Shown here piece by piece: positions 413-12,309 of a DNA stretch of 15,288 nt; position 1 is the stretch's first letter, and each line of letters opens with the position of its first letter. A program made the position numbers and the translations under genes. The DNA comes from an uncultured archaeon (GTDB lineage: Archaea > Asgardarchaeota > Lokiarchaeia > Sigyniarchaeales > SOKP01). Below the pieces are notes generated by a model that was not told where the DNA came from, ran no database searches, and saw nothing but the letters and a program-made list of their open reading frames with translations. The stretch spans positions 1-15,288 of the forward strand of contig CAZDTP010000076.1 of the NCBI GenBank assembly GCA_964508365.1. The letters are read 5' to 3'.

Positions 413-1969
413 ATGATCGAAAAACCTGAAAGAAGGGAAGATGAAGAAGAAGGCTCAGAAAACATAGATAATGCAGATATCCAAAATCATAAGGTTCCTG
501 AAGAGGAAACGAAAAAGGATGTAGGTAAACCTGTAATTCTCAAAGCGGAAGCTTATAAAACAATTATTTTGTATGCTAGCAGATATGCTAACCAAGCTAT
601 CCCTTCCAAAGATTGGAAAGAAATCTATGGACTTTTAATTGGATATCGAGATGACGATTTTGTATATGTGGAAAGAGCAACCCCAATGACCTTTGGTCAT
701 GATACCGATGTCGAATTCAGTGAAACAGATTACGGGGATATTGAAAAAATTAACGAAGAACTTGATAGAGAGGGTAAAGGTTATTTTTTCGTAGGATGGT
801 TTCATTCACATCCTGGATTAACATTATTTTTTTCTTATATTGATCTCATTAACCAACTTGGGTTTCAGGGCAAATTTGATAATGCAATAGGATTAGTCTT
901 CGATCATACTCTCCTTGGGAAGAAACGAGAAGAAAAAATCGATAAAAACATCCTCACAAAATATGATACGGGATTTGAGATTTATCGATTAACAGATGCC
1001 ACAATGGATCCAAATTCGGTCGAATTTGAAACGAATTATCATAAAGTGGATTATATTGTTGAAGGGTTAAATAAATTCTTTTTTGCAAACGTACTCGCAG
1101 AGTTATCATCTTTAGTATCTGCGGGAAAACCACTTCAGCAAGCCTTCAAGGAACAATATAAACTTGACTCGAATTATAAAGATCTAGATGAGGAATTGGA
1201 TAATCATAATTCCGATTTGAATGAAGAAAATCTTGTAGAAATCCCGCAATATGAGGATATGCAATTCAGCGTGAACGATATTTCTTATCAGACAAGTATA
1301 GATGATACTATTGTAAGAGAATTAGCTGAACAGATTATATACCAAGGGAATGAAGCTTTTAAAAACAAAGATCCTTTCACTGGTATAGAAAATTATCGCC
1401 AAGGAATTGAGAAATATAAAGAAATAAACGATATGAATAGAGTTATGGACTTACTAAGAAAGGTGTCTAGATTCTGTATTTCGAATAATCATTTAGTGTT
1501 AGCTCGAGATTTTGCTGAGGAATTATTCAAAGTAGCAGAAAATAACAATCATACATTTTATATGGGGATCGCTAATTATATTATAGGTTACATTGTCGTA
1601 AAAGAAGAAGAATTAGAAGCCTTAGAATTTGGTTTAAAAAAAATTGAAGAAGCAGCTGTAGAATTCATTAAAGTTAAAGATTTTGCTGGTGCTGGGATGG
1701 CTTTTAATAGAATAGGGTTGATATATGAAAAAAAAATTAAGAGTATTGGACAAGCGTGCCTTTTCTATCGTGAAGCCATAGAAAATTACAATAACGGTTT
1801 AATTTATAGTCACCCTCTAAGAATTACTCCGTGGAGCAAACCGGAAGTTTTAATTGAAAAACTCGTAGAATTAAGAGATATAGTCGATGTTTTACTGCCA
1901 GATATTGAAAATACTGAAATTAAAATGAAAGTCGTTGATGACTTGAAAGCCATTCATTATAACTTCTAA
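413..1969 (+). CDS. JAB1/MPN+ (JAMM) metalloprotease domain fused to a C-terminal TPR/SNAP-like helical region
   Basis: KEIYGLLIG supplies the catalytic Glu. VGWFHSHPGLTLFFSYID fits HxH-x7-S-x2-D exactly. The C-terminal half has TPR-like helices (e.g. GAGMAFNRIGLIYEKK...ACLFYREAIENY). Confidence 0.85.
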   Translation: MIEKPERREDEEEGSENIDNADIQNHKVPEEETKKDVGKPVILKAEAYKTIILYASRYANQAIPSKDWKEIYGLLIGYRDDDFVYVERATPMTFGHDTDVEFSETDYGDIEKINEELDREGKGYFFVGWFHSHPGLTLFFSYIDLINQLGFQGKFDNAIGLVFDHTLLGKKREEKIDKNILTKYDTGFEIYRLTDATMDPNSVEFETNYHKVDYIVEGLNKFFFANVLAELSSLVSAGKPLQQAFKEQYKLDSNYKDLDEELDNHNSDLNEENLVEIPQYEDMQFSVNDISYQTSIDDTIVRELAEQIIYQGNEAFKNKDPFTGIENYRQGIEKYKEINDMNRVMDLLRKVSRFCISNNHLVLARDFAEELFKVAENNNHTFYMGIANYIIGYIVVKEEELEALEFGLKKIEEAAVEFIKVKDFAGAGMAFNRIGLIYEKKIKSIGQACLFYREAIENYNNGLIYSHPLRITPWSKPEVLIEKLVELRDIVDVLLPDIENTEIKMKVVDDLKAIHYNF

Positions 1970-6607: not shown

Positions 6608-6648
6608 AAAAAAGGGAAGTCTTTAAATACGGCACGGGCGCAACCGTG
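6608..6648 (-). terminator. GC-rich hairpin followed by a T6 tract, candidate 3' end of the selenoprotein transcript
   Basis: Minus strand reads CACGG-TTGCGC-CCGTG (6648..6633), followed by CCCTTTTTT (T6 at 6613..6608), in otherwise AT-rich DNA. Confidence 0.4.
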
Positions 6649-6692
6649 AATCACTTAATCTTCAAAAATTTACAAGATAAGTTCATTTATCA
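6647..6692 (-). promoter_or_regulatory. Candidate eukaryote-type SECIS element (selenocysteine insertion sequence) in the 3' UTR
   Basis: Minus strand reads AUGA-A-CUUAUCUU-GU-AAA-UUUUUG-AAGAUUAAG-U-GA-U. Core: U6685.U6650, G6684.A6651, A6683.G6652, A6682-U6653. An 8-bp helix with one bulged U follows, and the apical loop carries AAA 11 nt after AUGA. Confidence 0.7.
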
Positions 6693-7064
6693 ACCGTATA
6701 CATTTGAATTTTTTTTTATGAACAACACCCCTACTTTTTTACCTTTCACTTCTCCTACTGCCGCATCTACAATGGTTAATGGTTTTTCTTCTAACTCAGG
6801 AATGATATTTTTCTCAATGTATACCTCGATATGCTCGGCTTTAAATTGTTCGTTCTCAATATTAGTATCATTCAACTTAACAAAATCGTTATCGTCTAAG
6901 AGTTTAAATTTTTCCACCAACTCGACAAAATTTCCACAAAGAGACATTGTTCATGTTTCAGCGGAATGATAAAAAAGTACTACTACTAATTGTTCTGATT
7001 CGATATTTTGTTGTTCATGAATAATATAATCCATTGCTTTTTTTGAGAAAGAAATTTTAAACAT
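6690..7064 (-). CDS. Candidate selenoprotein, HesB/IscA-like fold, 124 aa, with in-frame UGA at codon 38 (U-x4-C)
   Basis: ATG 7064 lies 117 nt (39 codons) upstream of and in frame with the track's ATG 6947, and the only interruption is TGA at 6953..6951. GGTGA RBS at 7072..7068. Translation: MFKISFSKKAMDYIIHEQQNIESEQLVVVLFYHSAET-U-TMSLCGNFVELVEK...EVYIEKNIIPELEEKPLTIVD...NVYG. A SECIS-like hairpin follows directly. Confidence 0.75.
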
Positions 7065-11217: not shown

Positions 11218-12309
11218 TTAATTATCGTTCTCTTCAAAATGTTTAAAAAACAATCCTATCCCGATAATTTTGAATGTGTCTTGAACATTTATGTTTTGTA
11301 ATGCTGAGGTTTCTATGAAAAAACTTTTTATTTCTTTAGCTTTTGCTAAACCTTCTTCTTTAGTTACCTCTCTATCATCTTCCTTATCGATTTTATTTCC
11401 GATGAGAACAAAAGGAATATTTCCTAATTCTTTTTTAGCATCTAAAAACCATGAATTTGTCGCTTCTTCAAAAGTATCTCTTCTAGTAACATCGTAAACT
11501 ATGAACGCACAGTTAGCCCCTCTGTAATATTCTCTCCTAACGCGTTTGAAAAAACTTTGCCCTGCTAAATCGTATATTAAAAACTTTATAACTTCATCTT
11601 TAAATCCTTGGAGGTAATATTGTTGTGTAGAAAGACATATACCCAATGTAGGTCTATAATCAACAATATTTTCTTTTTTCAAAAACTGATTTACTAAAGT
11701 GGTTTTTCCAACCGCTCCCTCCCCGAGTATGATTAATTTAAATAATTTTTCTATCTGGTTTTCTTTCGTAATTTGATGAGTAGATTTCACTCCATCAGAG
11801 ACAGGCGTGGATTCCTGAATTGAAAATCTATCTAATCCTAAAGAGAAGGAATCGTGAATGTTTAGATCTGGAACTTCTAGATTATTGAATTTAAAATCAA
11901 AACTGTCTTCAAGTAACTGAGCAATCTTCTCGACAACAAGATATGCAACTGGAAATAATTTATTTAAATTTGTTTCATAATCACAAACTAATAAGAGTAT
12001 TGCTTCAAATCCCGCTTCCAAGTAAATGATACGATTATCGTCTGTTTCAAACGAACCACTACCATAACGACCAGATTTGTATTCCAAACTTACTTTATCT
12101 AGTAACTTTTCAACGATAGCAGTAAATGCACCATAAATATCTTCTTTCTCCTGGTCTTTTTCTATTGTAACTTCTGTTTTTCCATACTTTGCCAAAATCA
12201 AGCCATCATTTGAATAAATGAAAGCTACTATAACATCATCTCGCGATTCTACGAAGTTTTTTAATAGAATCCGAAGATTTTCCTCTTTAGTTGCTGCTTT
12301 AGTTTGCAT
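11218..12309 (-). CDS. Roadblock/LC7 (MglB-like) domain fused to a Rab-like small GTPase
   Basis: The N-terminal ~135 aa have the Roadblock pattern (VIVAFIYSNDGLILAKY...GSFETDDNRIIYLEAGFEAILLLV). The C-terminal part has G1 GEGAVGKT, G2 PTLG, G3 DLAGQ, G4 NKID, G5 ETSAL, and Rab-like YYRGA and IVYDVT. Confidence 0.9.
   Translation of the reverse strand: MQTKAATKEENLRILLKNFVESRDDVIVAFIYSNDGLILAKYGKTEVTIEKDQEKEDIYGAFTAIVEKLLDKVSLEYKSGRYGSGSFETDDNRIIYLEAGFEAILLLVCDYETNLNKLFPVAYLVVEKIAQLLEDSFDFKFNNLEVPDLNIHDSFSLGLDRFSIQESTPVSDGVKSTHQITKENQIEKLFKLIILGEGAVGKTTLVNQFLKKENIVDYRPTLGICLSTQQYYLQGFKDEVIKFLIYDLAGQSFFKRVRREYYRGANCAFIVYDVTRRDTFEEATNSWFLDAKKELGNIPFVLIGNKIDKEDDREVTKEEGLAKAKEIKSFFIETSALQNINVQDTFKIIGIGLFFKHFEENDN

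Follow-up and report, generated by a model that had tools for sequence, protein, structure and literature searches.

The lokiSECIS geometry, as given in the excerpted text of Mariotti et al. (2016; PMC4989117), comprises an AUGA, a 9-bp stem, an 11-nt loop and a GA, and the same excerpt reports that the Loki elements had no match to the eukaryotic SECIS model. For Asgard archaea, a type I eSECIS-like model has been put forward with an upper stem of 7-15 bp and at most two mismatches, and the available part of that article states that no SBP2 was detected in these organisms (Huang et al., 2024; PMC11227280). The selenoprotein lists in the available portions of the two articles name SelD, FrhA/VhuU, HdrA, FrhD/VhuD, PrxL, AhpF-N and a DsbA-like protein for Asgard archaea, with no HesB-like family among them (PMC4989117; PMC11227280). 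A review of May 2026 recognizes 11 archaeal selenoprotein families, and a HesB-like family is not listed there for Asgard archaea (PMC13188914).

The DNA analysed here, referred to as the window, is a stretch of 15,288 nt that constitutes a whole contig (CAZDTP010000076.1) of a 4.07-Mb assembly (31.8% GC) from an uncultured member of the Lokiarchaeia. On its minus strand, the RNA at 6699-6627 is very probably a functional Lokiarchaeial SECIS of the lokiSECIS or Asgard type I kind, serving the UGA at 6953-6951. This kind of RNA is already known from Lokiarchaeia, and the gene family served is absent from the published Asgard lists. The results that support this assignment are the motif and its geometry, the conserved and covarying base pairs of helices I and II, the occurrence of the element only behind gene copies with the UGA, and the Sec-pathway genes of the genome. 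A first-pass annotation had already suggested a eukaryote-type SECIS after the stop codon, a proposal now supported by geometry, orthologues, covariation and paralogue arrays. With such an element, an annotated 85-aa ‘hypothetical protein’ fragment would become a selenoprotein of 124 aa that has the fold of iron-sulfur carriers, and a HesB-fold selenoprotein would add one family to the archaeal selenoproteome. The gene lies beside genes for a P-type ATPase and a membrane protein. The window also contains two genes of the ‘eukaryotic signature’ type that is typical of Asgard archaea, one encoding a Roadblock/LC7 domain fused to a small GTPase (11218-12309, minus strand) and the other a JAB/MPN-type protein with a helical-repeat tail (413-1969, plus strand).

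Architecture of the element and its likeness to described SECIS types

The features of the locus are collected in Table 1. Read along the minus strand, the sequence runs through GUA UAC GGU UGA UAA, AUGA, ACUUAUCUU, GUAAAUUUUUG, AAGAUUAAGU, GA, UU, CACGG-UUGCGC-CCGUG and CCGUAU. The first-pass annotation had placed the AUGA at 6686..6683, the AAA 11 nt further on at 6671..6669 and the GA at 6652..6651, and all of these coordinates hold, as does the distance of about 265 nt between the in-frame UGA and the AUGA. It had drawn helix II with 8 bp (CUUA-UCUU / AAGA-u-UAAG); the named pairs are retained, and the additional pair A6682-U6653 brings the helix to nine standard pairs with one bulged U. 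Its spacer of 17 nt is correct when counted from the AA and amounts to 16 nt after the AAA, and the short spacing, which had been listed as a weak point, is that of the published lokiSECIS according to the excerpted text of PMC4989117. Helix I had been regarded as simply short; it comprises 6 bp (6699-6694 with 6632-6627), displaced by the hairpin inserted at 6648-6633, which it encloses. The extent originally assigned, 6647-6692 (46 nt), is accordingly replaced by 6699-6627. At the foot of helix II, a non-Watson-Crick quartet of A6683.G6652 and G6684.A6651, flanked by U6685.U6650 and A6686-U6649, is possible.

Table 1. Positions in the window of the gene, its stop codons and the parts of the SECIS element
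Feature	Position	Strand	Remarks
Whole SECIS	6699-6627	-	73 nt; 3' end of CDS and 3' UTR
Helix I, 5' strand AUACGG	6694..6699	-	Within final codons of CDS; MFE fold
AUGA of core	6683..6686	-	5' half of putative G.A/A.G quartet; sequence
Helix II, 5' arm ACUUAUCUU	6674..6682	-	Fold, covariance model, alignment
Apical loop GUAAAUUUUUG	6663..6673	-	11 nt; AAA 6671-6669 at loop positions 3-5; last letter G
Helix II, 3' arm AAGAuUAAGU	6653..6662	-	One bulged U (6657 or 6658); covariance model, alignment
GA of core	6651..6652	-	3' half of putative quartet; followed by U (C in the genome's other elements)
Second GC-rich hairpin CACGG-UUGCGC-CCGUG	6633..6648	-	Between core GA and helix I 3' strand; MFE fold
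Helix I, 3' strand CCGUAU	6627..6632	-	MFE fold, alignment
CDS of 124-aa selenoprotein	6693..7064	-	Translation; ATG 7064-7062; putative Sec codon is residue 38
In-frame UGA, probably read as Sec	6951..6953	-	265 nt upstream of SECIS AUGA (6686-6683)
Tandem stops UGA-UAA	6687..6692	-	Inside 5' internal loop of SECIS
U6 run	6608..6613	-	14 nt past end of SECIS; sequence

The 124-codon gene ends at a UGA (6692-6690) with a UAA immediately behind it, and the AUGA begins 3 nt past the terminal UGA. Since orthologues mostly carry UAA at the stop position, and the extra sense codon (Cys, Tyr, Phe or Leu) that some of them have before the UAA is not conserved, this terminal UGA is read as a plain stop. 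A C-terminal Sec may be considered there as a residual possibility, at a position that is not conserved. The run of six U downstream of the element is probably a transcription terminator, judging from its sequence.

When compared to the lokiSECIS and Asgard type I elements, the same order is observed, with the AUGA directly before a 9-bp stem, the GA directly after it, an 11-nt loop with a run of A and a terminal G, and a location right after the stop of a UGA-bearing gene. The start of the loop, GUAAA, corresponds to the G[U/G]AAA variant in the excerpted text of Huang et al. (PMC11227280). Differences from the lokiSECIS are the bulged U of the stem, which is restricted to the source genus, the U before the last G of the loop, the GAU in place of GAC or AAC, and the gene family served, which is missing from the lists in the portions of PMC4989117 and PMC11227280 cited above. 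In other genera the element has a perfect 9-bp stem. Against the consensus of the genome's own elements, the window element likewise stands apart by its bulged U, by loop ends of the form GU...UG and not RA...AG, by UAA and not RGR before the AUGA, and by GAU and not GAC. The U before the final loop G, where A is usual, is also found in the genome's own PrxL element.

Likenesses to the eukaryotic SECIS (Rfam SECIS_1, RF00031) include the AUGA/GA core, unpaired adenines 11 nt past the AUGA, a 3' UTR location and an effect exerted from a distance on a UGA further upstream. In contrast, helix II has 9 bp where the eukaryotic stem is longer, as stated in the excerpt of PMC4989117, and the window element has no RF00031 match at E <= 10, starts inside the last codons and spans just 73 nt. 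With the euryarchaeal SECIS, including the Methanococcales VhuD SECIS in which AUGA...GAC surrounds the main stem, it shares the 3' UTR position and a GC-rich stem, and with the latter also an outer ‘extra’ stem that has the AUGA on one side and the GA(C) on the other, again as far as the excerpted text of PMC4989117 describes them. It differs from the euryarchaeal type in that its main stem is AT-rich, the GC-rich stem is a separate side hairpin and the GAA_A bulge is missing. An assignment to the euryarchaeal GAA_A type was rejected, no such bulge being present anywhere in 6699-6627, hairpin 2 and helix II included.

As a single sequence, the element would not attract attention. By chance, 0.6 occurrences of the bare pattern ATGA-N11-AAA-N16-GA are expected per window, and at least one was present in 92 of 200 shuffles; the folding energy of the element is ordinary when compared to shuffles (z = -1.14). 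An Rfam scan of the window at E <= 10 returned no SECIS family, its snoRNA-like matches being at chance level and located elsewhere. As neither the bare motif nor the folding energy exceeds chance, the significance of the element rests on its full architecture and on cross-genome comparison.

Conservation of the element among orthologues, paralogues and other genes of the genome

A six-frame protein search was performed on 160 genomes of the class, covering 134 other genomes of the same family and 25 outside the family. Homologues were detected in 53 of the 134, where all good matches contain a single in-frame TGA in an identical position, and in none of the 25 outside the family. Among the homologues, the stretch of 37 codons ahead of the TGA is preserved in frame and at the protein level, and U38, C43, G44 and N45 are invariant in 22 orthologues. 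In public records, the homologues appear either as 85-86-aa fragments starting past the TGA or as miscalls in which TGA is translated as W, and the proteins of these relatives are labelled Promethearchaeota (Lokiarchaeia).

The position of the element is also conserved. Of 30 orthologous loci that were fetched, 28 have a match (11-29 bits) immediately past the stop to a covariance model built from six known SECIS of the source genome (R1); of the remaining two, one is cut by a contig end and one was aligned differently, with the element visible in its sequence. The AUGA is kept in 25 of 29 aligned orthologues, with AUAA in L011 and AUGU in L024, L025 and L028, and the core GA is invariant in the alignments (A3, A5 and A6). 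These four loci, as well as the second Sec paralogue of L060 described below, retain the UGA and the rest of the element. For the orthologues with AUAA or AUGU, either the core variant is tolerated or the copies are decaying.

Base pairing is well preserved in the 29-element alignment, in which 91.8% of the cells of the stated structure are paired, compared to 40-49% when the partner columns are slid by 1-3 positions. Helix II is 98.3% paired, and five of its eight counted pairs have changed on both sides. For helix I (pairs 6-11/89-94 of alignment A3), 89% of the cells are paired and three pairs have changed on both sides. Pair 9-91 is C-G in 12 sequences and U-A in 11, the switch consisting of a synonymous UAC-to-UAU change in a Tyr codon and a matching G-to-A change in the 3' strand. 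When RNAalifold was run unguided on a MAFFT alignment, helix II was recovered with nine pairs, six of them with compensatory changes; helix I and hairpin 2 were not recovered from this alignment. The latter two are therefore less firmly established than helix II, and their basis is the stated structure together with the inspection of individual sequences.

Searches with covariance models gave a more divided picture. In the source genome, R1 retrieved the six known elements and three further ones behind small ORFs at 27-53 bits. On the window element, which is its top match in the window, this six-element model gives 14.4 bits (E 0.14 within the window), less than the weakest match listed genome-wide at E <= 10 (17.4 bits). 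This low score is attributed to the bulged U, the GU...UG loop ends, the UAA before the AUGA and the GAU. For a second model (R2), the training set consisted exclusively of 13 elements of the HesB-fold gene from other genera, all lacking the bulge. In the genome search with R2, the window at 6650-6690 was the sole significant match, with 39.4 bits and E 0.001, followed by a match of 23.9 bits, among the 150 of about 10,000 candidates that were scored; the VhuD, HdrA and PrxL elements were not among the matches listed from those 150.

Tandem arrays of HesB-fold paralogues occur in two other genera (loci L056, L057, L058, L059 and L060), flanked as in the window by genes for a P-type ATPase and a membrane protein. 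The orthologue with U is designated copy A, a Cys form (..ISKQACAGSY..) copy B and a second Sec form (..RSUSGxFC..) copy C; the source genus has copy A only. Copies A and C each have their own element directly after the stop, that of copy C in L060 (1472-1511) having the core ACGA, and the Cys copy, which is present in three of the loci, has no element behind it in any of them. The absence of the motif behind Cys-type copies and its presence behind copies that keep the UGA had both been named beforehand as points on which a SECIS reading would depend, and both were observed. These Sec/Cys/Sec arrays can be regarded as an experiment of nature, with SECIS and UGA present or absent jointly. The arrays and the four natural core variants (AUAA and AUGU) provide material for testing which letters are needed by a eukaryote-like SECIS that operates without SBP2, and the letter requirements of such archaeal elements bear on the origin of eukaryotic Sec decoding.

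A pattern scan of the genome identified a set of elements in which a 9-bp stem is flanked by AUGA on its 5' side and by GA or AA on its 3' side. The loops measure 11 nt, except for two with 10 or 12 nt, and have AAA near the start and G at the end. This shape agrees with the lokiSECIS geometry (PMC4989117) and with the type I model (PMC11227280). Six of the other elements lie behind three VhuD genes, one HdrA, one VhuU and one PrxL gene, in each of which UGA occupies known Sec positions. Each of the 11 type I elements of the genome has a short GC-rich hairpin after the core GA, with an outer helix enclosing the two hairpins; the sequences of the GC-rich hairpin differ among the 11, and hairpins of differing sequence are also present at this place in the orthologous and paralogous elements. 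A similar layout surrounds the type II hairpin in the selD 3' UTR (C6:91380-91560, L050). The anticipated likeness to the 3' regions of selD, hdrA, vhuD and vhuU is thus borne out in geometry and in the three-helix layout, and the 14.4 bits obtained with R1 have to be set beside it. GC-rich hairpins recur after the core GA(C) in a genome of 32% GC. A descriptor of core, 9-bp stem, loop, GC hairpin and outer helix, composed after the elements were known and allowing one bulge, matched exactly 11 sites in the 4.07-Mb genome, the window element included. The same descriptor yielded 0, 0, 0, 0 and 1 sites in controls consisting of one reversed and four locally shuffled genomes, about 0.2 on average.

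The encoded protein and the selenocysteine pathway

The residues around position 38 of the translation are ..FYHSAET-U-TMSLCGN... Pfam, NCBIfam and PDB sequence searches with the protein gave faint HesB and CC/Se hints and nothing more, namely matches to HesB_rel_seleno (TIGR01911) and to the CC/Se family (NF041239) with E values of 0.0026 and 0.012, far below the cut-offs. An AlphaFold model based on 22 orthologues has a mean pLDDT of 81 and a pTM of 0.76, and its ten top fold matches in the PDB all belong to the HesB fold and include SufA and IscA (best E 2.6e-3, probability 1.0). The protein is hence modelled as a small member of the HesB/IscA/SufA fold. In this model, Sec-38 follows the second strand and would occupy the place of the first cluster-binding Cys of IscA, a correspondence drawn from topology and not from a residue-by-residue alignment. 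The small IscA/HesB fold and the Sec after the second strand are features shared with the HesB-like selenoproteins (TIGR01911) and the CC/Se family (NF041239). The window protein differs from them in having U-x4-C-G-N and not UxGP, and in lacking the C-terminal CxC.

Several genes of the Sec pathway have been identified in the genome, among them SepSecS (477 bits), PSTK and SelD, the last with an in-frame TGA, and an EFSec-like gene (C19:2090-2977) is located 5 kb from SepSecS. A genome-wide reassignment of TGA was considered and rejected, as TGA is the terminator of 201 of 1558 ORFs of at least 300 aa. The assembly is rated 100% complete, and a tRNA-Sec went undetected in it despite the other Sec-pathway genes: the Rfam model at E <= 10 gave ordinary tRNAs only, and nothing credible was obtained from ARAGORN with or without introns, nor from a script for 9/4 stems. 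The published Loki tRNA-Sec carries an intron, according to the excerpted text of PMC4989117, and an intron may conceal this tRNA in the source genome as well. ARAGORN counted 14 tRNAs without introns and 29 when introns were allowed, which suggests that many tRNAs of this genome bear introns.

Proposed decoding mechanism, alternative readings and further candidate genes

In the mechanism envisaged for the window element on the model of eukaryotic and Loki SECIS, the AUGA...GA core would fold into a kink-turn with tandem sheared G.A pairs at the foot of the 9-bp helix II, and the loop adenines and the terminal G would offer further conserved contacts. The RNA would then recruit the Sec-specific elongation factor loaded with Sec-tRNASec, either directly or via a K-turn-binding protein. 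A ribosome paused at the UGA 6953-6951 would insert Sec as residue 38 rather than terminate, and the terminal UGA 6692-6690, which lies within the element and has a UAA behind it, would act as the stop.

Other explanations have been weighed against this reading. It is exceedingly improbable that the element is a chance hairpin of AT-rich DNA, with the TGA a true stop and the annotated 85-aa ORF the product. The unremarkable z value of -1.14, the 0.6 bare motifs expected per window and the 14.4 bits of R1 would all fit such an account, and public databases show 85-86-aa fragments or TGA=W calls only. The comparative data contradict it: reading-frame conservation extends through the 37 codons that precede the TGA, the TGA itself does not vary across 53 genomes, and the element is conserved with compensatory changes and is the sole significant R2 match genome-wide (150 of about 10,000 candidates scored). 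Its full architecture was counted 11 times in the genome, compared to about 0.2 per control. It is also very unlikely that the conserved 3' structure serves a purpose other than UGA recoding, for instance as a terminator or as an element for transcript ends or stability, even though the position at the 3' end of the gene, the GC-rich hairpin and the run of six U after it could be taken in that sense. The letters that are conserved are those that define a SECIS (the AUGA, the loop AAA, the terminal loop G and the GA), the Cys paralogue of the same tandem array has no such structure, and the same architecture stands behind VhuD, HdrA, VhuU, PrxL and SelD genes.

Archaeal L7Ae binds K-turns generally, and the AUGA...GA core is a K-turn motif, so that a kink-turn binding L7Ae for another purpose, as in a C/D-box-like sRNA or a translational regulator, also has to be considered. 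This is highly improbable, given that an Rfam C/D-box match is absent at 6627-6699, that a guide region could not be accommodated within this box spacing and hairpin layout, and that the element is strictly tied to UGA-bearing genes. A C/D box sRNA proper was rejected on its letters, which are AAAUGAA and GUGA and not RUGAUGA/CUGA boxes, with a 29-nt hairpin between them.

A further proposal, which is tentative and on balance doubtful, concerns the layout of the Lokiarchaeial SECIS as a whole. It might be a three-way junction in which the GC-rich second hairpin is an integral and conserved part, a counterpart of the euryarchaeal GC-rich stem and a docking site for an archaeal SECIS-binding factor. 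That the hairpin is integral is suggested by its presence in all 11 type I elements and in those of orthologues and paralogues with unrelated sequences, and by the similar type II element of selD. No description of a three-way layout with a second GC hairpin was found in the excerpted texts of Mariotti et al. (2016; PMC4989117) and Huang et al. (2024; PMC11227280). If the proposal is true, such elements would stand structurally between the euryarchaeal and the eukaryotic SECIS types.

Additional sites with the full architecture have been observed in the source genome. The one at C89:6401 (minus strand) has no convincing ORF assignable beside it, and that at C4:47580 (minus strand) lies behind a small unannotated zinc-ribbon-like CxxC...CxxC ORF, the frame of this ORF terminating in a TGA 43 nt upstream of the element. 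Another, at C6:66549 (minus strand), follows an unannotated membrane-anchored peptide ending in ..GGGUPSTCSIFTNVF. On contig C22, an ORF of 152 aa (21316-21771, plus strand; L061/L064) has two adjacent in-frame TGA codons (..HAD-U-U-ADN..) and no Pfam match, and 11 nt separate its end from a canonical type I SECIS at C22:21783 (37 bits with R1). Homologues of this ORF with two TGA codons, and in a few cases three, are present in 134 of the 160 genomes of the class.
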